Shown piece by piece: positions 1 to 20,059 of a DNA stretch of 64,000 nucleotides (position 1 is its first letter; the number at the start of each line of letters is the position of its first letter). The stretch spans positions 32,001 through 96,000 of the forward strand of contig JABCTC010000003.1 in NCBI GenBank assembly GCA_018238545.1, in the 5' to 3' direction. The position numbers and the translations under genes were made by a program. This DNA comes from Candidatus Heimdallarchaeota archaeon. Its GTDB lineage: Archaea > Asgardarchaeota > Heimdallarchaeia > Heimdallarchaeales > Heimdallarchaeaceae. The notes beneath the pieces are model-generated. The model was not told the DNA's origin. It saw only the letters and a program-made list of their open reading frames with translations, and did not search any database.

Positions 1-839
1 TCAATCTGCTTCATGTTCCAGATAAGTACTCTTCTTCTCGTCCTCCAGCTGTGCTGGGGATAGATTTAGGAATCAATAAACGTGCGGTAAGTGCACTCCT
101 TACACCAAAAGAAACAATCAACCGACATGAGATCAGTTTTTGGTCTGATAAGACACGAAAAAAACTACTAAAGGAAAAAGAAAGAAAAATAGCAGAACTA
201 CAGAAACTTCTAGCTAAATCTAGTTTGACTTTTGGAAAAAGAAAAGAATTTCTTTACCAACTTAAGTCACTTAGAAAAAGATAAAGAACGGAACATAAGC
301 TAACCGACCACACATATGTCAATAAAATCGTCAAGTACATTCTCTCATTAGGAAAGAGGTACGACCTCTTTGTGGTAGTAGGTTTTCCAATTCATATCCG
401 CAAAAGTCATTATCGCGGTAATCTCCGCCCCTATTCTCGTAAAAGTGTCCACAAATGGAATTACAGGAGAATGACAGAATTGCTCAAATTCAAGCTTTTT
501 CTGCATGGCTGGGAAGAGTACAGAATCCTAGCTATTGGTGAATCGTGGACCTCTTCTACCTGTTCTCGTTGTGGCTCCTATCACACTATCCGTCCTAACC
601 AACCTACATTCATCTGCAATATTTGTGGGTATCAACTTAATGCTGACTTGAATGGAGCGAAGAATATAGCTAAAAGACTGATCAAGTATGTTCTACAACC
701 AAAATATAACTCTATTAAAGATCAAGTTAGTGGAAAGTTTTTTCCTCTCAGTTCTTTTCGTGTCTTCCCTGTCCTAAGCCAATGGCTACAGACAAAGCAG
801 AGTCATCTGCTTACTCCTGGAGCTGGAGTGAGTACCTAA
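1..839 (+). pseudogene. tnpB: TnpB-family RNA-guided nuclease (IS200/IS605-type), 5' end outside the window, interrupted by an in-frame TAA at 282-284
   Basis: ORFs 51..284 and 372..839 share one frame and align colinearly with the intact copy at 28301..29779 (LGIDLG RuvC-I, ESWTS..CSRCG and C..CG Zn finger, NADLNGAKNI RuvC-III). The intact copy reads RKRQRTEH where this one reads RKR*RTEH (CAA->TAA). Confidence 0.88.
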
Positions 840-2597: not shown

Positions 2598-3872
2598 ATG
2601 ACAAAGATAAGCTCAATATTTGGAAAGAAAAAACGAAAAGAAAAGGAAGAACAGCCAAGTTTTTTCAATGGACTATACAAATTTAATCATCAAAATATAG
2701 TTAAGAACAGTCAAACCTCTGAAGAGATCTTGCTTGGCAGTGAAAAATCCGATACTTTGTTTTTAGAAACTACTACAAAATTTTCTTCGTTCGGATATGT
2801 TTTTGCTGGAAAAACAGGGATCAATATACTTTCTCAAATGAAGACACGCATAAGAGAAAACTTCCCCCCAGCACTAATTGTATCTACTTTAAATGAATTC
2901 GATAGAATTGGTGAAAAATTTCCATTTATTGAAGTTCCAAATATATCCTTAGAGGATCAAACATTCTTTCAGGGTAATCAGTGGTATCTTACAAACAAGG
3001 ACAGAGTTGAGGATAGATTAGCTCGTTTACACAAAGAAGTTTCAATTGTATTTATCTTTGTAGAAAATAATGCTTTCTTATTAGGCTTGCTTACACCCAT
3101 ACTCAAATTCTTAGAAACTACTGATGTTCAACCCGTTGTGGTTCTAAACTTACCCAATGATGAAAGTGCACTAAATGAAACTGTCAGTGCTCTTACCTTC
3201 ATTTATAATCTCATGAATAAGGAAGAATCAACAAACATTCCTTTCATCCTCTTCGATGAAAATATACTTGTGAAAGCCAATCCAACAATGAATTTGGGTG
3301 AGTTATTAACAAGATTTACTGATCGAGTAGCTAATATATTCTGTGATATAATGCTTGGTTCGTTAACTACATCAACTTTCTATCAAACAGATTTAAGCAA
3401 TTTTATTAGAATATTTGAAAATGTGAGAGGACCTTGTAAACTGGTTTCCGTTGATATTTATGATAATAAACCAAATATATCAAGTCTTCTTGAACAGAAA
3501 CAGCTCTATGGGTCAAGTTTTTCAGTGAAAAAAGATGCAACTAGAGGATTTATGATAATTCAACCAAGTAACAAAGGCCTTAGTACTAAGGAGTACAGAA
3601 ATTTTAGAGATATTTACTCCAATTTTGATGTAAACATCTCAATTCTTGAAAAGCGAAATAATGGTTCAATAATTAGAGGTATTTTTACTTATAATGAGTT
3701 ACCAAAATCATTATTAGAGCTGTATGAAAACCTCTCTGAAATCTATATTGAAATTCTAGATGATCAAAATAACGTTAGTGAATATTTTGATTTAATAAAT
3801 CTTGAAGATTTAATGAATATACAACGATACAGAATCAATGTTAGAGTTAAAGAAGAAAAAGTAAAAGAATAG
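2598..3872 (+). CDS. Divergent FtsZ/tubulin-superfamily protein lacking the GGGTG[S/T]G signature loop
   Basis: Colinear matches to FtsZ elements: FAGKTGINIL (~GVGGAGNNAV), IVFIFV...LLTPILKFL...VVVLNLP..E (~MVFITA-GGGTGTG-AAPVIAEI...VAVVTKPF.FE), FILFDENIL (~LIVIDNDKL), QTDLSNFIRIF (~NVDFADVKTIM), ATRGFMII (~ARGALVNI). Confidence 0.6.
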   Translation: MTKISSIFGKKKRKEKEEQPSFFNGLYKFNHQNIVKNSQTSEEILLGSEKSDTLFLETTTKFSSFGYVFAGKTGINILSQMKTRIRENFPPALIVSTLNEFDRIGEKFPFIEVPNISLEDQTFFQGNQWYLTNKDRVEDRLARLHKEVSIVFIFVENNAFLLGLLTPILKFLETTDVQPVVVLNLPNDESALNETVSALTFIYNLMNKEESTNIPFILFDENILVKANPTMNLGELLTRFTDRVANIFCDIMLGSLTTSTFYQTDLSNFIRIFENVRGPCKLVSVDIYDNKPNISSLLEQKQLYGSSFSVKKDATRGFMIIQPSNKGLSTKEYRNFRDIYSNFDVNISILEKRNNGSIIRGIFTYNELPKSLLELYENLSEIYIEILDDQNNVSEYFDLINLEDLMNIQRYRINVRVKEEKVKE

Positions 3873-4103: not shown

Positions 4104-7100
4104 ATGCAAGGTAAACTCCGTACAATTATAGGTATTTTAATTTTAACAATTACAGTAAGTTCATCAGTCGCAATGGGTGTATTGCTTCCTCTTCACTCTT
4201 CGAATTTAATTACCCAAATATATACAGATATGGATAATAATGCTCGGTTGACAGAGAGTGATTTCTTTCCAAATGACGGAAGCGGTAATTACTCTGAATG
4301 GATGTATACAGGTGTAGGAACAAACACTTCAAAATTTGTTGATCAAGCAGTTTTTGAATTCTTCAATATTACAGATAGAGAGGCTTACCTCGACTACAAT
4401 ACGAAAATAGCGTACTTCTTTGTGCAAGGTGAACTAGTTTTTGACATTATTATTAATAAAACAGTTTTAGAATACGACGTAGAATCTGACTATGTAGTTT
4501 ATGCTTATAGAAAACAATTTCTCTTCAATGCAGAAGACTCATCCCTAACTGGTGATGAAACTGTTTTGAATTTCAACTATCTTTGGCCATATTATATTGA
4601 ACATTTTGGAAATGGATCAGAATATGGTTTTCAGAGTTTTATAGCATCAAAACTAATTCAAGAAGAATTAATCGGTTTTAATACATCACTAGGTTATACC
4701 TTTGATGAATTAGCTTATGCAGTTATGAATAGAACATATGCTGAAGAAGAAGGTATAGTGGATTTAGGCATCTATTTGCCCCACAATTGGTTAAGTGTAA
4801 GACCTGCTTTTCCAGATCTTAACTTTGATATTGCAACAAGTTATCAGATATTGTATGATGCTATATATAATGGTCATGATTACTCATTACTAACAGGCGA
4901 AGCTGGTTCAACTAAATACTTCCTTGATTTAGTAAGAGGTCTTGATTTTGAAGGACAATATGATTTGATTGTTGATGTTGAACAACTTTTAACAGATATT
5001 TATGGAATTGATACTCCACAAGAACAAGAATACGCAAAATCCCTTGCAGCCTATATGAATTATTTACTAGGAAAGCCTTCATTGGATTGGCTTTATGAAA
5101 ATCAAATATCATATGTTTGTGAAAGAACTGCTATGGATTGGGTATTAGGTATTGAAGATCCTCTTATGGATGGAAAAAGATTCCCCTTAGTTAACAATCA
5201 ATCATTATCAAGTTCAAGTATTGATTGGGATTTAGATTTGTATTATGCAGAAAAACTTGGATCATATGATGTAAATGATGTTGGTAAAATCATAGCAATA
5301 GCTAATATTCCAGGGTATTATTATTCTCAATCTATGGAACTATTCGTGGAAGATAACCTAGCTTACGTGATAGAAGGTGGAACTGATATTAAAATAGTTA
5401 ATATGACAGATCCCTTATTCAAAGCAATCGGTCAATTCGGAGACTTCATTCTTGACACTGCTCTTCCCAATCCTTCATACGATCCTATAGGCGTTGATGG
5501 TTATATTTCAAACCTTGTTGTAGTTGATTCATATATTTATGCAGTAGAAGGTGACACTGGATTAGAAATACTCAATGCAACCGACCCAAGTGCTATTTAC
5601 GAACTTGACCAGTGGGATAATTTTGGGAATGCTGATATGCGAGATGTTGATAACGCCGTTTTTGGAACATCAACTCCTTATGATGCTCTTATAATAGCAA
5701 ATGGACAACATGGTCTAACTTATGCCAGATTGCAAACTGAAGATAGAACAGTAAGTACAGTTGTTAATTTTGCAGGGTTATCTGGAGAGGCTTATTCCGT
5801 AGATGAATACAATGATTACGCTTTCGTAGGTTTAGGAATTGATGGAATTGATGTAGTTAGTATAGATGGTCTCGACGGTACAATGGCGCTTGAATATCAT
5901 TATGATTCAATCAATTTTGCAACATTCAATAACATTCTAGATGTTAAAGCAGAAAATGGATTCCTATACGTTCTTGATGCAGTTGAGGGATTGTTAATAT
6001 TCGATATATTGTTTAATGGTACTCTTATTGAACAAGGTCAATTTGCATATGGACCTACGGAAACACCTTACATTGATGTTTATGTTGAAGGAACTAATGC
6101 CTATTTAGCACAAGGAGATTATGGTCTTGTTGTAGTAGATATCTCTAACAAACTCAGTCCTTCTGAAAATGCCAGATTTGACGGTGCTGAACACAAAGGT
6201 TTAGCATACAGCGTATATGTTGATGGAAGTGATGTTTATCTTTCAGATTATTCTCAAGGACTGGTTCATCTCAATTATGTCTCTAACACCTTTTCAATTG
6301 CTAATAAAGATCAGTTACACACTTTCGTTGAAGCTTGGCAAAGCGAGAACAATATTCAATTCAATAATTGGCTTCTAAGTGATCCTGAATTCGAAGCAAA
6401 TGAAACATATGATTCATTCGGATTATACACATTTGTTGAAAGAGGTTTCAGACAACAATGGACAGAGTATTTCCTTAGACCTTACATCTTCTCCTCATTA
6501 ACAGATACAGCTCTGTTTGTTGATAAAACAGTATTAGTTTATACCGCACAAGCTCAGATACCATATCTACAAAATGAGGAAAACAGCCTGTATTGGATGC
6601 AAGACGCTAACTTCCTCAATGAAAGTTTCCAACATGCAGGAAGATGGAGCATCCTTCATGGGGTAGAATATCAAGCAACAGATTTTGATATTACTCATTC
6701 CTTCCCTGGTACATTACGAGATGAATTCCACATGCAATTCATGTTAGTAGAACCTAAAACAGGGTCTATAATTGAACGCAAAGATAGAGTACAATATAAT
6801 ACACGAGCTATAGACTATAAAGAGGCTTATTCACTTCTCAATAAGACTACATTCGGATACGAGTGGGAAGTCCCTGGGGCTAATTACGTCAATTTACCTG
6901 TTGATCACATCTACAAGACATGGCATGTTACATATCCAGCTTTACCTGGAGATATGGCAACACTCTTCTGGCAAGAAGATGTCTACAAAGCTACAAATAA
7001 TTTCTATGAAGTGTTAAGAGAAGACTTCTTAGATAAAATCGACAATGCTGATGCTCTGAGAACATTAGGTGCTTTTGGTTCAATGTTCAGTGTTGCCGCT

Positions 7101-7163
7101 GGTTTTATTGTAGCTTCTGTTGTGCTCAATTTCATGAAGAAGAGAGCAGAAATTCCAAAATAA
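4104..7163 (+). CDS. CD36/SR-B (LIMP-2)-like two-TM glycoprotein with inserted LVIVD-repeat beta-propeller
   Basis: N- and C-terminal TM helices. CD36-like motifs FEFFNITD, YRKQFLFNAEDS...DETVLNFN, RTAMDWVLGIEDPLM, LVEPKTGSIIERKDRVQYN, LFWQE. LVIVD repeats (YIYAVEGDTGLEILNATDP; NAYLAQGDYGLVVVDISN). Many N-x-S/T sequons. Confidence 0.7.
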   Translation: MQGKLRTIIGILILTITVSSSVAMGVLLPLHSSNLITQIYTDMDNNARLTESDFFPNDGSGNYSEWMYTGVGTNTSKFVDQAVFEFFNITDREAYLDYNTKIAYFFVQGELVFDIIINKTVLEYDVESDYVVYAYRKQFLFNAEDSSLTGDETVLNFNYLWPYYIEHFGNGSEYGFQSFIASKLIQEELIGFNTSLGYTFDELAYAVMNRTYAEEEGIVDLGIYLPHNWLSVRPAFPDLNFDIATSYQILYDAIYNGHDYSLLTGEAGSTKYFLDLVRGLDFEGQYDLIVDVEQLLTDIYGIDTPQEQEYAKSLAAYMNYLLGKPSLDWLYENQISYVCERTAMDWVLGIEDPLMDGKRFPLVNNQSLSSSSIDWDLDLYYAEKLGSYDVNDVGKIIAIANIPGYYYSQSMELFVEDNLAYVIEGGTDIKIVNMTDPLFKAIGQFGDFILDTALPNPSYDPIGVDGYISNLVVVDSYIYAVEGDTGLEILNATDPSAIYELDQWDNFGNADMRDVDNAVFGTSTPYDALIIANGQHGLTYARLQTEDRTVSTVVNFAGLSGEAYSVDEYNDYAFVGLGIDGIDVVSIDGLDGTMALEYHYDSINFATFNNILDVKAENGFLYVLDAVEGLLIFDILFNGTLIEQGQFAYGPTETPYIDVYVEGTNAYLAQGDYGLVVVDISNKLSPSENARFDGAEHKGLAYSVYVDGSDVYLSDYSQGLVHLNYVSNTFSIANKDQLHTFVEAWQSENNIQFNNWLLSDPEFEANETYDSFGLYTFVERGFRQQWTEYFLRPYIFSSLTDTALFVDKTVLVYTAQAQIPYLQNEENSLYWMQDANFLNESFQHAGRWSILHGVEYQATDFDITHSFPGTLRDEFHMQFMLVEPKTGSIIERKDRVQYNTRAIDYKEAYSLLNKTTFGYEWEVPGANYVNLPVDHIYKTWHVTYPALPGDMATLFWQEDVYKATNNFYEVLREDFLDKIDNADALRTLGAFGSMFSVAAGFIVASVVLNFMKKRAEIPK
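5340..6300 (+). repeat. LVIVD repeat array (~7 blades, beta-propeller) inside the CD36-like gene
   Basis: Repeated 'V.V.g.yaYv..g..GL.ivdis' units of ~45-50 aa. Confidence 0.75.
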
Positions 7164-7354: not shown

Positions 7355-10300
7355 TTGTCTGATGATACAAGAGCAAAGAAAATGTCAGCAGCTGCATTCT
7401 TCAATGATAACAAAGCAATAGCTGGCTTTGGAAATTCAATGAGGGCAGTATTTACGAGTATCAGAGAACTTGTAGAAAATGGTTTGGATGCAGCAGAAAT
7501 AAGGGGAGTCAACCCTGTTATTTCAGTTGACTTACGTAAGCTTTCTAGCAGAGAAATTAACGATCTGCTAGATGTTACACAATATAAAAAGTTGGAAAAG
7601 CATCTTGATTTTCTGCAGTTAACTTGTAGAGATAACGGTGTTGGGGTTCCAAGTAATCAAATAGCAGATTTGTTCGGACGAGTATTAACCGGAACTAAAT
7701 ACGGTGTGATTCAGACTCGTGGTCGATTTGGTCTTGGAGCAAAAATGTGTTTACTTCACTCTATGTCTTCAGTTGATCTACCTGCTCGTATCAAAAGTCG
7801 TTATTTTATGGATGATATGACTCATGAACTACATTTAATGATAGATCTTGAAAGAAATCAACCTATCGTCATGGAACAAAGAGAATATTTATCTGGAGAT
7901 CCAAATGCGCTAGAAGAACCGGGTGTTGAGATTAGCATAACCTTTACAGGTGCTTGGAGATTAGCAAAGAATAGCGTTAAAGAATACTTCAGACAGTTAG
8001 CAATTATTACTCCTTATGCAAGTTTTGATATAAAAGTTCCTGGTGATAAGGAAGGAGAATATGAGGAATTACATTATGTGAATGTGGTAGATGATATGCC
8101 TTCCCCTCCCCAGCACGTTAAAATTCATCCTTGGGGTTGTGATATCACTCAATTCAAATCAGAATTATCTTCAACTAAAGCTAAAAAAATGAAGAAATTT
8201 CTTGCAGAACATTTTATGGGAGTAACAGAAGAAATTGCTGAAGATTTCTTCCAGTTATTGGAAATCGACCCAAACAAATCACCTTCGAATATAACTTCAA
8301 AAGAAATTCGAAGAATAGTTCACGAAGGTTTTGTTAAAGCTTATCAAGAAGCCAAGGATGTTAAGAGGAAACGAGATAGGATATTTCAGTTTGACCCACC
8401 TAGAGGAGATGCTCTTTCTCCATTAGGTGCAGGAAGATTAAGGAAAGGTCTCGAGAAAGAATTACAACCAAAATTTGTTGAAGCGGTTACAAGACCTCCT
8501 AAGGCTTATTCTGGTCATCCTTTCGCAATTGAAGCAACAATGGGTTATGGTGGGGGAGTAAATGAAGCAGCTCAAGCTAAAGGAACTACCGTCCACGACA
8601 ATAAGATAATTTACAGGTATGCTAATAGAATCCCTCTTATTTTTGGGGCTGGAAATGATGTTATCACTCAAGTCGTTTCCTCTATTCGGTGGAACGATTA
8701 TGGACTAACTAGACAGTCTGACCCTCTTGCCATCGCTGTTTCGTTAGTCAGTACAAAAATACCTTTCCCTGAGACAAGTAAAGAATATATTTCTAATGTT
8801 CCTGAAATTGAAGAAGAAATAAGATTAGCTCTGATGCAATTAGGAAGGAGACTTAAAACCTTTTTGAGCAGAGCAAAACGAAGAAAGAGAGAACATGCTC
8901 GATTATCAAGATTTGTTAAATCAGCACCAGTAATAATTGAAAATCTCACTCAAATTCTTGAAGATGAGAACCTTAAATTTACCGATTTCCGACTAGAAAC
9001 AGATCGGATTTCTGCAGCTCTCGCTCATGGTACTCCGAGGAAGGTTCGCCTTTATATGCCAATTGGAAAGCGGTTATTCGGAGCAAATATTTGGTGCCCA
9101 AATAATATTCAAACTACATTAAAGAATAACAATGTTGAGTCAGTTGCAGAATTTTTACTCAAAGATTCAAAAGAATTAGTTACAATCCTTCAATTAACAG
9201 AATCTCAAGTTTACGACATAAAATTAAGAACCATTTCTGAATTGGATAGAGACAACTTGAGTCCAAATTTTGACACAAAGACCTTAGTATCTCGTCTTGT
9301 TGAAAGAAGGTTCTCCTCCGAAGGTGAAAGAAAATTCATTTCCCTAAAAGATGCATTATTTAGGCGATGGATACAAAATGTTTACCACTATTTAGCAACG
9401 GATTTCGAAAAATTACGTAATGTCTCCGGAATGCTTGAGAAATTTTTTGAAACTAAAAAAGACGAATTACTTAATGATTATTTAGCTAAAGGAGCTAAAA
9501 CAAGTAAAAATACCATATTAACAATAGACAAAGCTATTGCTACTTACGCTAAAGCATCAGATTTAAAGAAAGAACAACTTTACCCTCCTTTTAAATATTT
9601 AAAATCTGAAACTGACAATGTTCTTGGAGAAGATTTATCGATAGAAGAATTTCTTTACCAGACTGTACAACCCACATCTATCAACTATCATCCAGAAATA
9701 ACTCGAACACTTATCGAGTATCTGAAAATTGTATTTACCCACATCAAAAACAAATTCCCTGCTTTCGCAACAACCAGTATAACAAAAATGCAACCTGATT
9801 GGACAGACGGTTATACAAAAAACGCTTTCCACAGAAGAAAGATAAAAACTGTTGGTGATTTTCTAAACCATTCTACTGATGATCTTATCGACATAAAAGA
9901 ACTGGAAAGAATAATGTATGAACAATACATTGAACTGATCACATTAAATACCAAATCTGTTCCTTTGAATGATTTCTCTTTTGTTGAGATTCAACAGCTA
10001 AAAGAAGAAGAAAACCGTATTAAGAGAGTTTTGGCTAAACACGGAATAAAAACCCTTGCTCAGTTCTTAAGTTATCCCTCTGAATCGATTTTACTTAAGA
10101 AGTTTGATACTTTAAGTGCTCTTCTGCTCAAGGAATCAAAATTCAAATTATTTACAAATTTACACGATACTAATAGAATTATTAATCAATCTTACATCAA
10201 AGTTATTCCTAAAAATGTTGAAACAGAATTAGTGAAAAATCAAATATTTACAACTTCTACCTTTTTAGCCAAATCTTCTGTAATTTTGAAGAAAATGGGC

Positions 10301-13300
10301 ATGAAGAAAAAAGATATTGAGAAAGCAAAGAAAGAACTTGGTACACCTTTACAGAATTGGGTTGATCATGATGAAATTCTCAAGAAATGTGGTATAGTAG
10401 TTTTAGAAGAATTATTCTTCAATGACGCCTCTGAATATAATCTCACAACTGAAGAAAGTAAGAAATATACTGAAAATATCATTTTCCTCCGTACGCCATT
10501 AGTTTTTGTGTTACCTGAATTAAGAAGTTCTTCTTATCTTCTTACTGAAATTGGCATCAATAATATTGGTCGTTTTTTGATATGGTCTAATACTGAACTT
10601 TCAGATATCCTTTATCTATCTGTCAATGAAATAAAAGCTCTAAAGAAGAAAATTGCCTTTCAAAAACAAATTCAATCAAAAGAAGAACTGAAGAAAGATT
10701 TAGTACTTTTTTCAAGGCACTATCCCAATTTAGTGAAATATTTTGGTAATGAAACACCATCGATTCAGGATTTGTATTATGCTTACCAATCAGAGAATTT
10801 CTCGCTTAATACAGGTTTTTGGAAGAAATTATACAAATTGAGTGAACTATCTCAACAAGAAGCTGTTGATTTAGTACATCTTTATCCAAAGAACTTCAAA
10901 GATATAGAGACGGTGAAAGATGCTCTTCTACGCTTGAAATCGAGGAATGTTGAAACTATACGTCAATTCATGGAATTACAACCAGAGATAATTGAATCAA
11001 AATTGAGTAACTCAAAGGAAAGAAAAGTTGCATTAGATCTTTATGATAAAATACTATTCAGAAGATTTGAAGGAGAACAGGAACTTCATAAACAAATACT
11101 TCTTCTTAGTGAGTATGATGAACTTCAAAGAAATTTTGGATCTCCTATCTCTAGAATCCCTGAACTTACTCTAGAGGAATTGGAAAAATTCCGAAGCCAC
11201 GATATACTAGCTGTTCATCAAATATTCGATTATACAGTTGATGAAATTGCTACTTTGCTTGGTCGTGACAAAGGCTCGGTTCAACACTTCATGGAAAGCT
11301 TTACACTCTTACGGAAAGGAACACCGTTTTTTGAGAAAGCAGATAGAAACAGATACAAATCACTTGTTTCCTTTGAATTTGAGGATTTAGAACGATTTTC
11401 TTCCATAGAGATTCAATCCCTTATTCAAGCTGGCTATGCTTCAGTTGACCAGATTTTTTACCTCACACACCCACTTACTTTTTCCTCTTCCATTCTAAAT
11501 TGGAATGTTGTAGACAAATTTAGAAAATTATTACGATCTCCACTTACATTGGTTACATGGGAAAAATCAGTTAAGTTAAAATCTTTTGATGAGGTTAAAA
11601 ATAAAGAAGTTGAGGTTGTGGATATTCAGATTTCTACATTAACTACTTCACAATTAACCGTTTTGCAGAATCAAGGCATTTCAAGAATCATCGATCTTCT
11701 TGTAAGTGAACCAGAAACGCTTTCAGAATCTCTTAACATCAGTTTGGATGAAGCTAAGATGCTTCAGAAAGATATCAGAATTATTGATACTGGAACTGAT
11801 TTAGCAGATTTAGACATCTTCAAATCAGAAATTGTTGATCAATTAGAAGAAAACAACATCTTAACTCTTGAGGATTTATATTTCTCAACTACGAAGAGTA
11901 AATGGCGAGTTAAGGAAGTTCCATGGGATATCATTATGTCATTCAAAAGTGTCCTCAACCTCCCCCTTGCACATTTGTCAGATATGTTGGATGAAGATAT
12001 TATAGTTGCATTAGAGGGCGCAAATGTTAAAACTCTATTAGGATTTATTCTTACAACTCCTGAAAGTTTAATGAATAAAACTGGTATACCTGATGAAAGA
12101 TTCGAAACAATAAAACGCGGATTGGATATCTCCGATATATTCAGTTATTTCTCACTTCCAAGTTATTTTCTTCCAAATTTAACCTTCCAGCAAACCGAAA
12201 TTCTACAAGAAAATGGCATTAAATCGGTTGCAGAATTTGTAAATAGCTCTCCACAGAAAATTAACAAACTAATCAAAGTAACTGCAAAGCAGTTTCGAGA
12301 AATCACTACGGCTTTAACCACTCAAAACCTCCAAGCTCTTTACGATGAGAAAGGTATCTTTGCTTTTGAAACAAAGCTCTTCGATAAAATGGAACAACGG
12401 CAATTGGGCAGAGATTCAATATTTGAATTTGATAGGTTTCAAACTATCCAAGAAATATACTATACGTTGAATAGAGATTTCTATTCAAATAATCAAAACC
12501 TGTGGGGAAAGGTCTCGGCAATCCAGAAAGTATTATTACTTCCTCTGCACATATTCACCGAAATTTCTGAATATGCTCTTGAGATTATGAGTCAAAACAG
12601 TATTGATTTTGTTTATCAGCTACTCTTTATTCTTGATGCAGATATTACTGATCCCTTATTATTCAGAACTGTATCAACTTATTCTTCAAAAATAATTGAG
12701 ATGAGAGCATTTCATTACTTTTCTAAGCTCCCTGCTTCTGTTTATAACTCAAGTTATTTCAAAAAAATATTGAAGGATACTGACAACAAATCTCTATCTG
12801 ATGTTATTACTGATGAGAAGATTATCAAAGATTTATCTGCTAAGGATAAACAATACCTATATGAAAATTATAACTTAACTCTCATTCGATCAATTCTAGA
12901 ATTACCTCTAAGGATTACTCCTTACTTTACAAGAATAAAGAAAGTTAGAAGAGAAGAATATAAAAATACAAAAATCGGAGATGTTTTTGATATTGATTTA
13001 GAGGAGCACTCTGCTCTGTCTTCTTTTTACTCTAGATTACTTGAAGAAAATTCTTTCAACAAATTAATCTCACAATTAACTATCCCTATATCTTCAATGG
13101 GATTACCTCGCGAACTTGCATTGAAGCTAAGCAAATCCTCTATAGGTACGTTATTAGCTTTCTATTCTACTCCTGAGAAACAAGTTTCTGAAATCTCTGG
13201 TTTCTCACAGAAGAATATTCGAGAAATAAAAGATGAATTAAAATATTCCAACATTGTTTCTATCCGAGTTTCACAAGCTCATAAAATTAAACCCTCTTCC

Positions 13301-16300
13301 TTTGCATCAGAAAAACAAATTTTTGACCTTATGGGGAGATCGATATCGGATATTGAGTCTCTCTTCTACTCCGCAGAACATTTAGGAATCTCAAAATGCC
13401 TTCCCATTGAAAATTATAAGAAAATCAAGGAAATTCTATCAGGATCTATAAGATTCATAGGATTTCTTTCATTTGATGAAATAAGGCGGTTGGAGTATCA
13501 TAATATTAATTCAATAATAGATTTTGCTCTACTCTCGAAAAAAGAACTTTTCACTATTACACAGAATCCAATTTACAAGGAATTTCATGTTCTAGATCTG
13601 ATTTCTTTTGATGAATTATCAGAAAAAAGGATTCAAGCTGCTATACCCCTCTCTCTGTGTCCCTCGATAGAAGAAGACTATTTAGATAAAATCAAAGAAA
13701 TAGGAATCAACTCTATTCAAGATTTTATCTCTAGAATGCCAGAAATTAGAGAATCTCATCCTCATTTAGTGAAATTAGATATCTTCCGCGAAGTGCAAAT
13801 GTATCTGTCCTCTGTTGCTTATATCGGACTTCCAAATGAAAGCGTTCAAAAACTGATTTACTCAGGTGTTGGCGATATTTTATCTTTCATTACTGAAGAT
13901 CCTTCAACTATCTCTCTGATTCTTGGAATAAGTGAGAAACAAGTTGAGAAATATAGCAAACTTGCTGTTCCAAGTAATTTGGTCACAGAAGTCGACAACA
14001 AAGGTGTTCTTCTCACTGAATTTTCAGCGTTATCTAAAGGAAGAAGAAATTCCTTACTTAAATCTGGTAAAGAAACAGTTCAAGATCTATTTAGTTCCCG
14101 TTATCAAGCATATTCTCAATCTAACATCTCTGATGTGTTAATGAGCGAATTTATTGAAAGTTGTAATGTGTCTTTATACAGAATTGAAGAAATTGAACCA
14201 GAAATTAAAGCTAAACTTTCAAAGAGTGAAATAACTAGGATTATTGACTTATTATGTAGTACTGATGCAGAACTAAAGAAAGCTCTTGATGGTAAACTCC
14301 CAAAAGAGTTTAAGCAAATTAGAAAAGGTCAGTTTACTTTAACAAAAGGCATTCCACTAATTTTGAATGAACCTTTGCAGGATATTATTAGAGAACTTAA
14401 TATCGAACCTTCCAACAAAAAAGTTGAGGACATGTTTGGTTTTGTACCCGAATTTCTACTTCAATTTACAGAATCTGAAAGGATTGAAAAAGACAAGAAT
14501 TTGGCTTTTCTTGAACAGATAGTTAGTTTCTTGAGTCTTAATATACTATCATTACCATTATTTAATACAACTACTAAACTAATTCTTTGGAACCGTGGAA
14601 TCCGACATGTTATAGAACTTTTATCTACTAATATGAACACAATTGATGGTATCCCATTTCAAGTAATATCAGAGGTTCGCTCTTTCCAGAAAGAATTTAG
14701 TTTAACTAGAAGCATGTCAGAGACATTGTCACCATACATTGATGATGTACTCATCTTGCCTGCAAAGAAGCAAGCTAAATTCCAGAATTATGGTCTCACT
14801 AATGCATTGTTATTTGTTGATTTTATACCTCATCCTATATTCAGTTTCACAGCAAGTGAGCAATCTATTCTCAGGATTGTTTCAAATAACATGTTCAAAC
14901 CTATAGCCTGGTTATCTTCAGATATGTCATTTAAGATAGAAGATATGAATTTACTTATTCAAAATAGAGCAATAAATATCCTTTCAGCTCTTCTTTTGTT
15001 ATCTGATCAAAATGATACTAAAGTTCTAGAAACTTTATCTAATAAATACTACAAATCGATTTCTACTTACCTAAATTCATCAATCTTACAATTTAGTGCT
15101 CCTGAATGGGCCTTGCAATTAACAGATACAAAGATAATAACTGATTCTAACAGTTTGAAGATACTAAAGAAAGATAATATCTCTTATCTTGATGAATTTT
15201 TAACACTAGAAAGCAAGTTCTTGAATAACCCTAATCTTGTAGCAGAGATTTTGCCAAAATTACTCTCCCTAAAGAGTCTCCCTATTTCCTCTATCAGTGA
15301 TCTATCACCCAGTAACATTCAAAAATTAAAACGTTCAAGAATAAATAATGTTTATGAGTTTCTTGTTTTTCCAGCTCCGTTGCTTTCAAATCTTCTGTCG
15401 ATTTCTGTTGAGAATGTTAACGCAATTAAATCTTCAATTGATCTTTCATCATTGGAAAAAACAGCTAAGCTTACAGGTTTAGATCTAGAGCTCTTCCCAG
15501 AACTTTCCCAAGATTCTAGAACAATTCTTCAAAGAAGAGGTTGCGTATCTCTGAATCAAGCATCAAAAATGGATCTAGACTTGATTCCACTTCTTTCAGA
15601 AGATAAAGCGATTCTACAAAATCTAATAGCTATGTTGTTTACTCCTACTACATTAATTGGAAAAATACTTAAATTAACAAAAAATGAAATTGATGAATTA
15701 TTGGTTCAGAACGTATGTACCTATGCAGACCTGTTGGAGCTTCCTCAAAAAACATGGCCAGCAAAAATAAGGAAGAGTCTTTCTGATAAGGATTCTGATC
15801 CAACATACCTTATCAAGAATCTACAGAACCTTGAGAAATTCGGAGTACCTATAGAAAAGTTAGATTTAGCGAAAAGTGTAACTAAATCTTTGGTAGAAGC
15901 AGGAATTGTGACAATTGATCATCTATACTATCTACCCATAGCCTATGTAAGTGCAAGAAGTAAAGTTAAACAGCATATTCTTGAAGAAATAAAGAAGAAA
16001 TTATCATATAATATTAATTTCCTTCAAGATATCTCACTTACAACTTTATCTGTTTGCTATTCAAAAGATTCATTCACGATAATTAGTTGCTTGATTTATT
16101 GGAATGGTTTATCGAAAGATGTAAGAACAGACTTAGAAGGTTCTTTAGACAGTATCAAATTAATTGAAGAAACAAGTTTTATAGAACCACTGACTCCAAC
16201 GGAAACAAAGTTAAAATCAATAGGTATTTTCTCCTTAAGATCATTCATTTTATCTCCTCAGATTAAGAAAGAAGCAGGCTTAACAACCAAACTTTTACCA

Positions 16301-19300
16301 TCTCTATTAGCAAATATTCGTTTCTTAAATCTAGATCCAAAGCAGAGTTATCGCTTGAAGAAAACAGGTTTTACAACTGTTGCTGACTTGCTTCTAAATA
16401 CATCAAAAACTATATCTGTTAAGTCTAAATTGGGCAAGAACGCAATTGATGAAGTTATCAATAACATAAAAATTGATAACCTAACCAGTTTGATTAAATC
16501 GATGGAACGAGAGCATTTACATGATGCATTTTATCTGAATTCTAACGATAAAGCATTCTTGAAATCAATAGGTGTTTATAGTTTAGCAGACTTAAACGAG
16601 TATACTGTTTTTGATTGGTTTGTTTCAAAACAAAAAATACAGAAAATCAAAAAGAAAATTAATTCCTTATTAGATACTAACATTTTGTACTATCCAGGAA
16701 TCACATCTAAGCAGTATGCAGAAGTTGTTGAACAATTCTTCATGAAGGATATATTTACAATCAAAGATCTGATGATATCAACAACAGTTGAGCAGTCAAG
16801 TGATTTAATTGAATTTTTAACCATTTTCTCTACTAACAAACCTAAAATCCAATCCCAGTATTTAACTTCTCTATCATTCTTAAAAGGGATTGAAGCCAAA
16901 GACTTGTTTAAGATTGACGTAAAAATGGAAAAATCTGCAACAATTAATGATCTTATTATAGCATTATACAAAAATTCAGCAGAATTGACCAAAAAGGGTG
17001 ATGATGTTCTTAAGCAAATCAGCTACCCCATTTCTATTTCATCGAAACTCAATCTCGATGAAGTAAATATTTTACTTAGTAAAAATATCCTCTCTTATGG
17101 AGATGTGCTTACCAAACCATCAGGTTATTGGGTAGCATTTACTCCAGTGAAACTAAAGAAGAAACTTCTTGAAATTCTTAGTACAATAACATCGAAAACT
17201 ATTAGCAATGATAGTAGTAAGGGCGTTCAATTAAGTAACATGAAAATATTTGATGCAAACCTCAAGAAACAGCTTACATCAAATTTTAAAACACTCGATG
17301 AAGTTGCTCATGCAATAAGAATAGGTGATTCTCGGATCTTAAAACCATTAGAGAGGAAAATCACTAAGGTTCTCTCTACTCCTATTTCTCTCCTTAAACT
17401 GCCAAAAATCAGCATCAAATCTTGGAAACGACTGTTATCTACAGCATCTACATTAGAAGAATTTTACTTATTAACAGATCAAGAACTTGTCAAAATATTT
17501 TCTTCTACCAAAGAAGAAATCGTAAAATTAAAAAATAATCTTGGTCCTGATAATATCGTCCTACCTCCAAGGATAAAGGAAAATAAAATCTTTACTAGTT
17601 CTGATGTTAAAGAATTGAGTGATAATAGTATTTCAAATTACATACAAATATTTGATAAATCTGCAGAAAAAGCAGATCTCAGCACTTCCTTAAAAGATAA
17701 AATTGCTTTCTACAAAGAGTTTGATGTTAAGCAACTAGATGAAAACTTAGAAGAAACTATACTCTTGAAAGATTTTGTAATTCTTGAATCTTATGCAGAT
17801 TCTCTAGAATTAAGTAGAAAACAAAAAGAATCTGTAAAGAACCTTTCTTCCTTGCTTCTATCTCGTGGTACATATTTGTCAAAGATTTTTGATATAGATT
17901 CTAATAAAGACAAAAGTGGTTTGCTCAATACAACTATAGAGTATTTCCTCTTAATTGAGAAATATCAACCTAAAATATACTCGAAAATTATTGAATCTTT
18001 ACCGGGAAATATCTCTTCACAATTCAACTCTTTACTGTCTTATCTCAATCGATCACCAATTCTCCTTTCAGGACCAAATCTAAAAAATATCAATAAAATA
18101 GTTAAACTTCCTTATGAAAATGTAAAGGACTTGCTATTATTGTCCAAGGAGAAACTTGTTCAAGAAATAGATGACACTGCAGTTCAAAGAAATATTAGAG
18201 GATTGACATTATCTATTTTGAAGAGTCTTAATTCCAAACTGACCTCTATTCCAAAAGAATTTTTGACAGCTTACGAGTTAAATCAGTTAAAGAAAGAGAA
18301 TATTTATTCCTTTGAGGAAGCTTTGGTTTTCAATAGAAAATCAACTAGTAAGAAGTCTAAGACTTGGTTACTCTCTGAGAAAGTAAGAAAAATTTCCACT
18401 ATCAACACACTCTCACTTTCTTCGTATCTCCCCTCATCTAAAATACAAGAAAGACTACTAAAACTTAAGATATCCAATGTTTATGAGCTGGTTTATTATT
18501 GCCAGAATACAGAAAAAGAAGAAGATCTGAGTCTTTGTCAAACTGTAATTCAATCTGTAAGTTCCATTAACATTGAGGAAATTGAAATAAAAGAGAGAAA
18601 AAGATTTGCTAAATTCTTTAATGACCCTGATATTCTTTCTTATTTGCGAAGCCAAGATATCAGAACTTTTGGACCTTTAGTACACTATCTAGAGCAATTA
18701 GAGGATGAAACTATTACACCTGAAATTGAGAAAATCTTATCCGTTATGCGTTTTCCAATTTCTGTTCTATCAGAAAATAAGAAACTTGTACAAAAATTAG
18801 AAAGTGAAGGTTATAACCAAGTAATTGATCTTCTTCTTCCTGCAAAAATTCAAAACAGTTTGAAAAGCAATATTACAGAGAATCAGCGGAAAGTTCTTGC
18901 GTCTTTAATCAACATGTTTTATCAAGAAATATACCAAACAATCCTAAAAAATCATTATCCAGTTTCAAAACTTACTTTGATCGATGATATTTTACAAAAA
19001 GAATTAATAAAAGCTGGATATGCAACAGTAGCTCATCTCAAATCACCTGATATAATTATTGCTGATACAAGCAAATTAAATCTGCAACAAATTTCACGTA
19101 TTGTGAGACTGTTTGATGCTTCTACCTACTACTTGTCTGAAATGCTCAAAGACTATCCACAAAGTGCTTTTGTTTTGTATAGCAATGGAATTAACACACT
19201 ATGGGACATTTTCCTTACAGGAAGTAAGGAAATATCCAAGATTACAGGTATATCTGTTCGTCAAGTAAATTCCTACTTATCAACTATCAATCCTCAAGCT

Positions 19301-20059
19301 ATGAAACTTTCGCAGAAAGATCAAATTATTCTGAAAGAAACACTTACCTACTTAACAACCGATGATGTGGGACGATTGGAACAAGATAACATCACATCTA
19401 TCCAACAATTATTGTTCCTAACAAAGGAAAACAAAACCAGTTCTTCACTCCAACGAAGTAATGTAAAGAAATTCATTCAATTACTTAGTATGCCTTTAAG
19501 TACAATAGACATACAAGAAACAGTTATTAAACAGCTGGAAGTACTCGGCATTAAATTAGTAAAAGATTTTGTTGTTTATCCAGCAGAACCTATGGCTGGC
19601 AAAGTAGACATAAGTTATGTAATGATAAAAAGAATTAAGGGAAGACTTCCTTTGGTTACAAAAAAGAAAGTAAAACAAACTGCCAAAACTTCGACCTTAA
19701 AGAAACCAACAGCTAAAAAATCTGCTACAACTAAGGGAGCTACTCCCGCTAAAAAGCGTTCTTCAACAAAGTCTAAGACCACAAAGAAAACTATAGCTCC
19801 GAAGAAATCAGCAAAAACTCAACAAAAAGCTAAACCAAAGGCTAAACCAAAGGCTAAACCAAAGGCTAAACCAAAGGCTAAACCAAAGGCTAAACCAAAG
19901 GCTAAACCAAAGGCTAAACCAAAGGCTAAACCAAAACCGAAATCCACTAAACAAATGACTTTGATGGATATTAAACCTACTTCCACAAAGAAACCATCTT
20001 CAACTTCAAAAACGAGAAAAAGCTCAAAATCCACTACTAAAAAAGGTGAAAAATCATGA
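7355..20059 (+). CDS. top6B: Giant DNA topoisomerase VI subunit B: GHKL-H2TH-transducer core (~aa 1-540) + ~3500 aa tandem HhH/RadA-NTD-like repeats + Lys/Ala/Pro-rich tail
   Basis: RELVENGLDA, DNGVGV, QTRGRFGLGAK, RYANRIPL, VSTKIPFPETSKE motifs. Upstream GAGGT SD. Directly upstream of and overlapping top6A. One continuous 12.7-kb ORF. Confidence 0.93.
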   Translation: MSDDTRAKKMSAAAFFNDNKAIAGFGNSMRAVFTSIRELVENGLDAAEIRGVNPVISVDLRKLSSREINDLLDVTQYKKLEKHLDFLQLTCRDNGVGVPSNQIADLFGRVLTGTKYGVIQTRGRFGLGAKMCLLHSMSSVDLPARIKSRYFMDDMTHELHLMIDLERNQPIVMEQREYLSGDPNALEEPGVEISITFTGAWRLAKNSVKEYFRQLAIITPYASFDIKVPGDKEGEYEELHYVNVVDDMPSPPQHVKIHPWGCDITQFKSELSSTKAKKMKKFLAEHFMGVTEEIAEDFFQLLEIDPNKSPSNITSKEIRRIVHEGFVKAYQEAKDVKRKRDRIFQFDPPRGDALSPLGAGRLRKGLEKELQPKFVEAVTRPPKAYSGHPFAIEATMGYGGGVNEAAQAKGTTVHDNKIIYRYANRIPLIFGAGNDVITQVVSSIRWNDYGLTRQSDPLAIAVSLVSTKIPFPETSKEYISNVPEIEEEIRLALMQLGRRLKTFLSRAKRRKREHARLSRFVKSAPVIIENLTQILEDENLKFTDFRLETDRISAALAHGTPRKVRLYMPIGKRLFGANIWCPNNIQTTLKNNNVESVAEFLLKDSKELVTILQLTESQVYDIKLRTISELDRDNLSPNFDTKTLVSRLVERRFSSEGERKFISLKDALFRRWIQNVYHYLATDFEKLRNVSGMLEKFFETKKDELLNDYLAKGAKTSKNTILTIDKAIATYAKASDLKKEQLYPPFKYLKSETDNVLGEDLSIEEFLYQTVQPTSINYHPEITRTLIEYLKIVFTHIKNKFPAFATTSITKMQPDWTDGYTKNAFHRRKIKTVGDFLNHSTDDLIDIKELERIMYEQYIELITLNTKSVPLNDFSFVEIQQLKEEENRIKRVLAKHGIKTLAQFLSYPSESILLKKFDTLSALLLKESKFKLFTNLHDTNRIINQSYIKVIPKNVETELVKNQIFTTSTFLAKSSVILKKMGMKKKDIEKAKKELGTPLQNWVDHDEILKKCGIVVLEELFFNDASEYNLTTEESKKYTENIIFLRTPLVFVLPELRSSSYLLTEIGINNIGRFLIWSNTELSDILYLSVNEIKALKKKIAFQKQIQSKEELKKDLVLFSRHYPNLVKYFGNETPSIQDLYYAYQSENFSLNTGFWKKLYKLSELSQQEAVDLVHLYPKNFKDIETVKDALLRLKSRNVETIRQFMELQPEIIESKLSNSKERKVALDLYDKILFRRFEGEQELHKQILLLSEYDELQRNFGSPISRIPELTLEELEKFRSHDILAVHQIFDYTVDEIATLLGRDKGSVQHFMESFTLLRKGTPFFEKADRNRYKSLVSFEFEDLERFSSIEIQSLIQAGYASVDQIFYLTHPLTFSSSILNWNVVDKFRKLLRSPLTLVTWEKSVKLKSFDEVKNKEVEVVDIQISTLTTSQLTVLQNQGISRIIDLLVSEPETLSESLNISLDEAKMLQKDIRIIDTGTDLADLDIFKSEIVDQLEENNILTLEDLYFSTTKSKWRVKEVPWDIIMSFKSVLNLPLAHLSDMLDEDIIVALEGANVKTLLGFILTTPESLMNKTGIPDERFETIKRGLDISDIFSYFSLPSYFLPNLTFQQTEILQENGIKSVAEFVNSSPQKINKLIKVTAKQFREITTALTTQNLQALYDEKGIFAFETKLFDKMEQRQLGRDSIFEFDRFQTIQEIYYTLNRDFYSNNQNLWGKVSAIQKVLLLPLHIFTEISEYALEIMSQNSIDFVYQLLFILDADITDPLLFRTVSTYSSKIIEMRAFHYFSKLPASVYNSSYFKKILKDTDNKSLSDVITDEKIIKDLSAKDKQYLYENYNLTLIRSILELPLRITPYFTRIKKVRREEYKNTKIGDVFDIDLEEHSALSSFYSRLLEENSFNKLISQLTIPISSMGLPRELALKLSKSSIGTLLAFYSTPEKQVSEISGFSQKNIREIKDELKYSNIVSIRVSQAHKIKPSSFASEKQIFDLMGRSISDIESLFYSAEHLGISKCLPIENYKKIKEILSGSIRFIGFLSFDEIRRLEYHNINSIIDFALLSKKELFTITQNPIYKEFHVLDLISFDELSEKRIQAAIPLSLCPSIEEDYLDKIKEIGINSIQDFISRMPEIRESHPHLVKLDIFREVQMYLSSVAYIGLPNESVQKLIYSGVGDILSFITEDPSTISLILGISEKQVEKYSKLAVPSNLVTEVDNKGVLLTEFSALSKGRRNSLLKSGKETVQDLFSSRYQAYSQSNISDVLMSEFIESCNVSLYRIEEIEPEIKAKLSKSEITRIIDLLCSTDAELKKALDGKLPKEFKQIRKGQFTLTKGIPLILNEPLQDIIRELNIEPSNKKVEDMFGFVPEFLLQFTESERIEKDKNLAFLEQIVSFLSLNILSLPLFNTTTKLILWNRGIRHVIELLSTNMNTIDGIPFQVISEVRSFQKEFSLTRSMSETLSPYIDDVLILPAKKQAKFQNYGLTNALLFVDFIPHPIFSFTASEQSILRIVSNNMFKPIAWLSSDMSFKIEDMNLLIQNRAINILSALLLLSDQNDTKVLETLSNKYYKSISTYLNSSILQFSAPEWALQLTDTKIITDSNSLKILKKDNISYLDEFLTLESKFLNNPNLVAEILPKLLSLKSLPISSISDLSPSNIQKLKRSRINNVYEFLVFPAPLLSNLLSISVENVNAIKSSIDLSSLEKTAKLTGLDLELFPELSQDSRTILQRRGCVSLNQASKMDLDLIPLLSEDKAILQNLIAMLFTPTTLIGKILKLTKNEIDELLVQNVCTYADLLELPQKTWPAKIRKSLSDKDSDPTYLIKNLQNLEKFGVPIEKLDLAKSVTKSLVEAGIVTIDHLYYLPIAYVSARSKVKQHILEEIKKKLSYNINFLQDISLTTLSVCYSKDSFTIISCLIYWNGLSKDVRTDLEGSLDSIKLIEETSFIEPLTPTETKLKSIGIFSLRSFILSPQIKKEAGLTTKLLPSLLANIRFLNLDPKQSYRLKKTGFTTVADLLLNTSKTISVKSKLGKNAIDEVINNIKIDNLTSLIKSMEREHLHDAFYLNSNDKAFLKSIGVYSLADLNEYTVFDWFVSKQKIQKIKKKINSLLDTNILYYPGITSKQYAEVVEQFFMKDIFTIKDLMISTTVEQSSDLIEFLTIFSTNKPKIQSQYLTSLSFLKGIEAKDLFKIDVKMEKSATINDLIIALYKNSAELTKKGDDVLKQISYPISISSKLNLDEVNILLSKNILSYGDVLTKPSGYWVAFTPVKLKKKLLEILSTITSKTISNDSSKGVQLSNMKIFDANLKKQLTSNFKTLDEVAHAIRIGDSRILKPLERKITKVLSTPISLLKLPKISIKSWKRLLSTASTLEEFYLLTDQELVKIFSSTKEEIVKLKNNLGPDNIVLPPRIKENKIFTSSDVKELSDNSISNYIQIFDKSAEKADLSTSLKDKIAFYKEFDVKQLDENLEETILLKDFVILESYADSLELSRKQKESVKNLSSLLLSRGTYLSKIFDIDSNKDKSGLLNTTIEYFLLIEKYQPKIYSKIIESLPGNISSQFNSLLSYLNRSPILLSGPNLKNINKIVKLPYENVKDLLLLSKEKLVQEIDDTAVQRNIRGLTLSILKSLNSKLTSIPKEFLTAYELNQLKKENIYSFEEALVFNRKSTSKKSKTWLLSEKVRKISTINTLSLSSYLPSSKIQERLLKLKISNVYELVYYCQNTEKEEDLSLCQTVIQSVSSINIEEIEIKERKRFAKFFNDPDILSYLRSQDIRTFGPLVHYLEQLEDETITPEIEKILSVMRFPISVLSENKKLVQKLESEGYNQVIDLLLPAKIQNSLKSNITENQRKVLASLINMFYQEIYQTILKNHYPVSKLTLIDDILQKELIKAGYATVAHLKSPDIIIADTSKLNLQQISRIVRLFDASTYYLSEMLKDYPQSAFVLYSNGINTLWDIFLTGSKEISKITGISVRQVNSYLSTINPQAMKLSQKDQIILKETLTYLTTDDVGRLEQDNITSIQQLLFLTKENKTSSSLQRSNVKKFIQLLSMPLSTIDIQETVIKQLEVLGIKLVKDFVVYPAEPMAGKVDISYVMIKRIKGRLPLVTKKKVKQTAKTSTLKKPTAKKSATTKGATPAKKRSSTKSKTTKKTIAPKKSAKTQQKAKPKAKPKAKPKAKPKAKPKAKPKAKPKAKPKAKPKPKSTKQMTLMDIKPTSTKKPSSTSKTRKSSKSTTKKGEKS
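9050..19650 (+). repeat. Degenerate protein-level tandem repeat (~55-60 aa helical units resembling RadA N-terminal/HhH domains)
   Basis: Recurring consensus 'P-I-x-x-L-x-x-L-[ST]-x5-L-x3-[GN]-I-x-[ST]-[IV]-x-[DE]-[LF]-L-x5-[EL]-x3-L-x-I-S' e.g. SPISRIPELTLEELEKFRSHDILAVHQIF, LPISSISDLSPSNIQKLKRSRINNVYEFL, MPLSTIDIQETVIKQLEVLGIKLVKDFV. Confidence 0.75.
19829..19936 (+). repeat. 12-bp tandem repeat GCTAAACCAAAG x9 encoding (AKPK)9
   Basis: Eight perfect units plus a final GCTAAACCAAAA, read directly. Confidence 0.97.

Follow-up and report, generated by a model that had tools for sequence, protein, structure and literature searches.

Sequence profiles identify a propeller-bearing relative of CD36 and LIMP-2 in Heimdallarchaeaceae

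Class B scavenger receptors (SR-B proteins; PF01130), which include LIMP-2 (SCARB2; Protein Data Bank (PDB) entries 4F7B, 4Q4F and 5UPH), CD36 (5LGD) and SR-BI, combine a hairpin of two membrane helices and short tails with colinear barrel motifs and a helical apex. A survey that covers eukaryotes only, and leaves archaea unmentioned, traced this family to the last eukaryotic common ancestor and described non-animal members (Dictyostelium LmpA, oomycete and ciliate proteins) in which a conserved barrel carries lineage-specific expansions, all of them helical and all at the apex (10.1101/2023.11.13.566873). We analysed a stretch of 64,000 nucleotides from a Candidatus Heimdallarchaeota archaeon (assembly GCA_018238545.1, contig JABCTC010000003.1, positions 32,001 to 96,000; hereafter the window), in which a single open reading frame (ORF) at 4104–7163 encodes a protein that, judged from its sequence, is a real but heavily remodelled relative of CD36, SR-BI and LIMP-2. 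The protein has the hairpin, the short tails, the barrel motifs and the apex at the same place, a predicted pairing of its first and last strands, and many glycosylation sequons (n = 14, N-x-S/T). Unlike the described receptors, it resides in an archaeal host, has no disulphides (its cysteine count is one), and carries a β-propeller at the start of the loop equivalent to β9–β10 of LIMP-2, an apex of about 170 residues and an extra insert before the last strand.

A preliminary description of this DNA had claimed CD36/SR-B homology together with nine CD36-like motifs, and all nine are present in the order it gave, at residues 84, 108, 137, 151, 342, 386, 882, 891 and 954. To describe the profile comparisons, we use ‘family’ for the 36 propeller-bearing homologues, including the 4104–7163 protein, and ‘canonical’ for the other CD36-family proteins, both Asgard and presumed eukaryotic; only some of the latter are named (EukProt, Artemia), and the rest are presumed to be eukaryotic from tree position. 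The intact protein scores 20.4 bits (E = 2e-4) against the Pfam CD36 model and does not reach the gathering cut-off of 26.5, which is a threshold on the score and says nothing of a structural feature; the inserts split the match. Scanned singly, 21 of the 36 family members match this model, the best at 1.6e-6, and some relatives of the 4104–7163 protein carry a precomputed PF01130 label. An Asgard CD36 profile drew 7169 cluster representatives, and a hidden Markov model (HMM) made from 42 short ones matches the protein at E = 3e-4 when intact and at 1.7e-7 when the propeller and helical insert are taken out. The best family member reaches 7e-16 against this HMM, and reversed sequences give no match.

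With the inserts taken out, the similarity lies far above chance level. When the trimmed family was aligned by hhalign to the presumed eukaryotic CD36 set, it returned 99.7% (E = 1.7e-25) over 454 columns, and 99.2% was obtained with the Asgard CD36 set. Without the membrane helices, the corresponding values are 99.2% and 98.4%, against at most 4.5% for the reversed control. Once the inserts are removed, all 36 family members reach E < 1e-3, and the trimmed family aligns colinearly to CD36 proteins from helix to helix. These results support the homology proposed in the preliminary description.

The protein layout also agrees with what had been proposed. Two hydropathy peaks define the claimed hairpin, leaving tails of about 7 and 11 residues, and the claimed helical insert corresponds to an all-helical region in the model, as assigned by DSSP. 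In model and alignment, this region follows the N-terminal strands and precedes the hinge motif at residue 342, which is the place of the apex in the CD36 family. The propeller, which had been placed at nucleotides ~5340–6300, has seven blades of four strands each in the AlphaFold model, with boundaries close to that estimate (Table 1). The C-terminal half of the CD36 domain additionally carries a family-specific insert of about 30 residues before its last strand.

The residues on either side of the propeller (1–405 and 738–1012) were folded as two separate chains, which yielded an assembly score of 0.84, compared with 0.00 for the best control. Of 80 solved complexes, 58 attain the score mark of this test, as do 2 of 110 mismatched pairs. 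Likeness to solved structures may be enough for the halves of a single domain to pass, so the score shows likeness only. Separate runs share at least 83% of contacts, with a partner predicted local distance difference test (pLDDT) value of at least 69. In the two-chain model, the membrane helices pack against each other and the strand at 81–86 runs antiparallel to that at 955–960, which agrees with published work that places the long N- and C-terminal strands of SR-B proteins side by side. According to this prediction, the halves on both sides of the propeller form a single closed domain, as a CD36 barrel requires. Searches with the full model by Foldseek, VIA-align and Atlas returned propellers only and no CD36 or LIMP-2 match, the propeller being dominant in them. 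The C-terminal half folded alone has a pLDDT of 52, so fold searches made with it are meaningless. Neither the propeller-only matches nor the poor folding of the C-terminal half is evidence against a CD36 fold.

Table 1. Features of the 4104–7163 protein and its upstream neighbour, in window coordinates
Feature	Coordinates	Strand	Basis
FtsZ/tubulin-like paralogue without GTP-binding glycine motif, 424 residues (upstream gene)	2598..3872	+	phmmer E 6e-8 to neighbouring FtsZ-like protein
CD36/SR-B-family two-membrane-helix surface protein, 1019 residues	4104..7163	+	ORF; Pfam CD36 E 2e-4 and LVIVD; hhalign 99.7% with inserts removed
Membrane helix 1, residues 8–26, running on as a long helix to 47	4125..4181	+	Hydropathy 2.2; DSSP; packs on helix 2 in two-chain model
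N-terminal barrel strands, residues 78–157 (CD36 profile positions 54–132)	4335..4574	+	Pfam stretch 84–161; pLDDT 85–94 except loop 96–98; 60% mean family identity
Expanded all-helical apex, residues 161–332, usual site of CD36 apex expansions	4584..5099	+	DSSP; 65% mean identity
Hinge motif after apex and strands equivalent to LIMP-2 β8–β9, residues 338–403	5115..5312	+	CD36-family HMM alignment; multiple alignment
Inserted seven-bladed LVIVD β-propeller, residues 405–738, start of LIMP-2 β9–β10 loop	5316..6317	+	AlphaFold model
C-terminal half of CD36 domain, residues 741–963: side lobe, conserved His876, EP-x-TG hairpin, last barrel strand	6324..6992	+	hhalign to canonical Asgard CD36 E 2e-6; alignments
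Arg892, place of LIMP-2 Ala379 / SR-BI Cys384, tunnel-lining	6777..6779	+	Alignment; LIMP-2 numbering
Tyr961, place of LIMP-2 Val415 / SR-BI Gly420, tunnel-lining	6984..6986	+	Alignment
Membrane helix 2, residues 990–1008, then short basic tail	7071..7127	+	Hydropathy 2.07; DSSP

LVIVD-repeat propellers (PF08309) of bacterial and archaeal surface proteins share the arrangement of seven four-stranded blades, and Atlas matches the inserted domain to such propellers with template modelling scores of up to 0.83 (by the match). Elsewhere these propellers are strung in tandem, whereas here one is nested inside another domain. The insertion falls at about Thr235–Leu237 of LIMP-2, at the start of the β9–β10 loop (232–265; numbering derived from a PDB alignment together with the residue list of PMC6684646), and when the propeller is cut out the chain continues directly into the conserved tryptophan that follows strand β9. 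In LIMP-2 this loop flips away to admit cholesterol (PMC5712522). The site differs from those of the helical expansions in the eukaryotic survey, and among 184 canonical proteins every insert of at least 60 residues falls in the apex, with no insert at the propeller site and no inserted propeller. Mean identity within the family is highest in the apex, amounts to 60–61% in the barrel strands and drops to 45% in the propeller. The propeller is among the least conserved parts, and its faces show structural glycine-type conservation only, with no clear conserved patch. Word-based searches, which could miss one, turned up no family member that lacks the propeller.

The lining of the putative cavity was compared at sites mapped to LIMP-2. 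Ala379 and Val415 of LIMP-2 (Cys384 and Gly420 of SR-BI) line a tunnel, and tryptophan at both positions reduces cholesterol transfer (PMC6684646, PMC5712522). Arg or Lys occupies the Ala379 site in 34 of 36 family members, compared with 0 of 163 canonical proteins. At the Val415 site, the 36 members carry His (13), Tyr (8), Thr (6), Ile (5), Arg (3) or Leu (1), and 56 of 57 canonical Asgard proteins have Gly, Ala or Ser. In addition, Asp894, which is invariant in the family, replaces Lys381 of LIMP-2, mostly Asp959 stands for Glu413, and Val214 is changed to Ala. Judged by alignment, the family cavity is remodelled and more polar than the canonical one. Because an Arg-Asp-Asp-His/Tyr cluster retunes the lining in place of Ala-Lys-Glu-Val/Gly, the ligand is probably not cholesterol-like.

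Summed over six mapped cavity sites, side-chain volume is 844 Å3 in the 4104–7163 protein and 801 ± 40 Å3 in the family. The same sum is 842 Å3 in human LIMP-2, 1069 Å3 in its blocked A379W/V415W mutant, 708 Å3 in canonical Asgard proteins and 743 Å3 in presumed eukaryotic ones. The idea that the tunnel is plugged is weakened by this agreement with human LIMP-2 and by the shrinkage of Lys and Glu to Asp and of Val214 to Ala.

About 40 full-length or near full-length homologues were found at identities of 39–93%, and the named ones are nearly all from Heimdallarchaeaceae or Heimdallarchaeota. The NCBI phylum labels of some records conflict with tree position and were not relied on; one ‘Thorarchaeota’ homologue, which is partial and comes from a contig of 3.4 kb, is in all probability a binning error. 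Searched with a profile of the N-terminal half, 26 of the 29 other Heimdallarchaeaceae genomes each yield one copy and no more; these 26 represent all five genera, and two of them consist of a single contig. The same profile has no match in the remaining Asgard genomes searched (roughly 370). This gene is native and old in Heimdallarchaeaceae.

Canonical CD36 proteins that pass the Pfam cut-off, with E values down to 1e-71, have a patchy distribution: they occur in 28 of 399 Asgard genomes, in four families of Heimdallarchaeia and in one large family, most of whose records bear the label Promethearchaeota. The Heimdallarchaeaceae genomes searched yielded no canonical protein and carry the derived propeller form only. 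The canonical Asgard profile matches LIMP-2 at E = 1e-73 and CD36 at 4e-68. These proteins belong, like the 4104–7163 protein, to the CD36 family and likewise have two membrane helices and an expanded apex (about 140–870 extra residues), but they widely pass the Pfam cut-off, have small tunnel residues and lack the propeller. Their genes (loci L035–L042 and L047–L076) encode 607–1368 residues, and tandem or nearby duplicates are found in two genomes (G263 and G273).

We tentatively favour the possibility that the 4104–7163 protein is a CD36/SR-B-derived cell-surface receptor that has kept a role in handling lipids or other amphiphiles. Two predicted membrane helices would hold the barrel upright outside the cell, the enlarged and conserved helical apex and the propeller would capture a ligand or particle, and the barrel cavity, by analogy with the CD36 family, would pass the amphiphile to or from the membrane. 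Because the propeller is attached to the loop that moves away in LIMP-2 and opens its lower lipid site, it may serve as a capture or lid domain at a side entrance. Our analysis shows the homology, the domain layout, the insertion site and the distribution, and all functional steps, lipid scavenging and partner recognition among them, are what we infer. A lipid-handling receptor is favoured by the profile match, the number of family members matching Pfam CD36, the predicted assembly of the two halves, the conserved barrel strands and the LIMP-2-like cavity volume. Lipid binding is known from both branches of the superfamily, in LIMP-2 (PMC6684646, PMC5712522) and in mycobacterial PgfA (10.1101/633768).

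Several observations weigh against this proposal. Both tunnel-blocking sites are small in 56 of 57 canonical Asgard and 83 of 106 presumed eukaryotic proteins, compared with 0 of 12 aligned family members, and three hallmarks of CD36 are lost or displaced in the family (the GP of the second strand, the GTDG loop and S-x-P-H-F). The ectodomain is strongly acidic, whereas LIMP-2 uses cationic patches for phospholipid surfaces. No lipid-metabolism genes are linked to the gene across related loci. Finally, the family sits on a stem branch of 2.3 changes per site, which is expected after a change of function.

The large residues at the tunnel-blocking sites and the loss of three hallmark motifs would also be consistent with a barrel that is merely a rigid stalk. 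Such a protein would be an adhesin or a recognition receptor whose apex and propeller bind to partner cells, to glycans or to particles, with no lipid moved; the two added surface domains, the abundance of glycosylation sequons and the fact that the best conserved part is the apex, which is the ligand-binding part of SR-B proteins, point the same way. We regard this alternative as somewhat unlikely. The volume at the cavity sites is no larger than in functional human LIMP-2, and the propeller faces are without a clear conserved binding patch. Moreover, a strict single copy at a fixed locus, as found here, is unusual for adhesins.

The neighbourhood of the gene suggests another role. In the window, and likewise in 17 of 20 related loci, rearranged ones among them, the gene immediately upstream is an FtsZ paralogue without the glycine motif; the other three loci lack it. 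An FtsZ-like gene that retains the motif, a gene for a six-helix membrane protein and a zinc-ribbon gene are nearby in related loci, again also after rearrangement; where a locus is of sufficient length, the FtsZ-like and membrane genes are almost always found within a few kb. In the source genome, these three genes are located just left of the window. The FtsZ/tubulin-like pair (2598–3872 (+) and L107:6749–9252, the latter left of the window) has one member with GGGTG and one without, flanks the conserved membrane gene, which belongs to no known family, and is conserved across Heimdallarchaeaceae; the GGGTG-bearing paralogue matches Pfam Tubulin at E = 1e-7 in relatives. At one locus of a single genus (L097, G013:C184), the propeller-bearing gene, which is cut by the contig end, follows the zinc-ribbon gene and not the FtsZ paralogue.

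This arrangement raises the prospect of a housekeeping envelope or cell-shape protein that acts with the FtsZ/tubulin-like pair and the six-helix membrane protein. A precedent is PgfA, a DUF3068 protein coupling lipid traffic to polar growth in mycobacteria (10.1101/633768), and near-universal occurrence in single copy, set against the patchiness of canonical CD36, would fit a function of this type. Nevertheless, we consider a PgfA-like role improbable. All loci come from one family whose gene order is generally conserved, and the upstream gene is missing in three of them. Because a gap of 231 bp with T-rich and TATA-like stretches separates the FtsZ paralogue from the 4104–7163 gene, the latter may well have its own promoter, and its very short cytoplasmic tails also speak against such a partnership.

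The actinobacterial LmcA/PgfA proteins (MSMEG_0317; PF11271) offer a further comparison. The crystal structure of LmcA was published as CD36-like and lacks the apex helical bundle (PMC8972800), PgfA binds a trehalose monomycolate analogue (10.1101/633768), and proteins of this type are much shorter than those described here. Because 14 of 23 canonical Asgard CD36 proteins also match PF11271 weakly and the LmcA structure is CD36-like, the superfamily reaches actinobacteria. The PorA/DUF3068 family has been described as actinobacterial (10.1101/633768); short two-helix PorA/DUF3068 proteins of about 320 residues, above the Pfam cut-off, are also encoded in two Asgard genomes of one genus (L081:618–1574 (−) and L082:1051–2019 (+)).

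It is very improbable that the 4104–7163 protein is itself a barrel of the DUF3068/PorA (LmcA/PgfA) type, or a chance assembly of motifs, and not a CD36-family member. Such an origin might account for the sub-threshold Pfam score of the whole protein and for the PDB sequence search, in which neither the protein nor the family profile matched CD36 or LIMP-2. In an Atlas feature search with the C-terminal half, a PorA cluster narrowly outranked a CD36 cluster (0.90 against 0.88), which is a lead only, and the N-terminal half gave no result. The preliminary description had called for a comparison of PF01130 with PF11271 and had allowed that the protein might group only with bacterial DUF3068. Neither this grouping nor the other refuting outcome that it named, the lack of a structural match to the CD36 β-barrel, has been obtained, and PF11271 matches 0 of 36 family members at E < 0.05, nothing at the 4104–7163 locus and nothing in 29 Heimdallarchaeaceae genomes. 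The helical apex that LmcA lacks is present, and hhalign gives 0.4% between the family and the short PorA-like Asgard proteins, which form a two-sequence profile only. On the evidence of the insert-free profile comparison, this origin is already largely refuted.

An unrooted LG+C20 tree was built from 76 core sequences, with no bacterial DUF3068 or Marine Group II sequences included. One branch (support 85/88) separates the presumed eukaryotes from the other sequences, and in the best tree the long stem of the propeller family stands beside Hodarchaeota- and Kariarchaeaceae-labelled groups (98/94). A tree that joins the family to the eukaryotes is not rejected by the approximately unbiased (AU) test (p = 0.43), and in neither of two trees built does the family nest inside the eukaryotes. 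With its long branch, the family can be assigned a sister position neither to eukaryotes nor to other Heimdallarchaeia. Contamination and recent transfer from a eukaryote, for which one could cite the AU result and a family median of 47 bits against the presumed eukaryotic profile and 40 against the Asgard one, have next to no probability and are already excluded, as the gene is intron-free, resembles its neighbours in base composition, sits between pyruvate kinase and topoisomerase VI, is conserved in all five genera at identities down to 39% and shows no such nesting. A pattern scan of all prokaryote species, which was of low reach, returned archaeal records only, the named ones Asgard, and the Atlas feature search gave Thermoplasmatota clusters at 0.89–0.90. 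Five proteins of 940–1100 residues (P0083, P0090, P0093, P0116 and P0156) have four matched stretches, probably representing two tandem CD36 domains, and group with an animal sequence.

The label of eukaryotic signature protein, given in the preliminary description, holds only loosely: actinobacterial LmcA/PgfA share the fold, and the family is not placeable in the tree. Canonical Asgard CD36 proteins are better candidates. We found no paper on an archaeal CD36 family, canonical Asgard proteins included, in the searchable literature, and CD36 is not named in the main texts of two structure-based surveys of eukaryotic signature proteins (PMC12962969, 10.64898/2026.10.28.762692), whose supplements may list the family. 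The barrel fold itself was already known from actinobacteria. The propeller-bearing form extends the family architecture by a whole propeller at a functional loop, in a gene that is near-universal in one archaeal family.

Clear CD36 members exist in two Asgard classes and fall outside the eukaryotes in trees, which makes an archaeal origin of this lipid-uptake and recognition receptor testable and has a bearing on lipid uptake or partner recognition by Asgard archaea. A bolder and rather unlikely scenario is that eukaryotes inherited class B scavenger receptors from an Asgard ancestor and that, in Heimdallarchaeaceae, the protein is a core receptor whose lid-loop propeller captures a ligand or a partner cell and controls the passage of lipid through the barrel. 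If this were true, Asgard archaea would gain a concrete machine for lipid exchange to or from neighbouring cells.

Other genes of the window have unusual features of their own. Downstream, at 7355–20059 (+), is a topoisomerase VI B subunit of 4234 residues, in which a normal core is followed by about 3600 residues of helix-hairpin-helix/RAD51D-N-like repeats and a Lys/Pro/Ala-rich tail. Relatives also have long versions at this locus (>2300 residues, truncated by the locus ends). The A subunit at 20056–21465 (+) has about 110 extra N-terminal residues ahead of its NCBIfam match. At the left end of the window, beside pyruvate kinase, a broken TnpB/IS200-605-like gene (3–839 (+)) is split over two frames and retains a C-terminal zinc finger; only one other locus has this gene at the same place.

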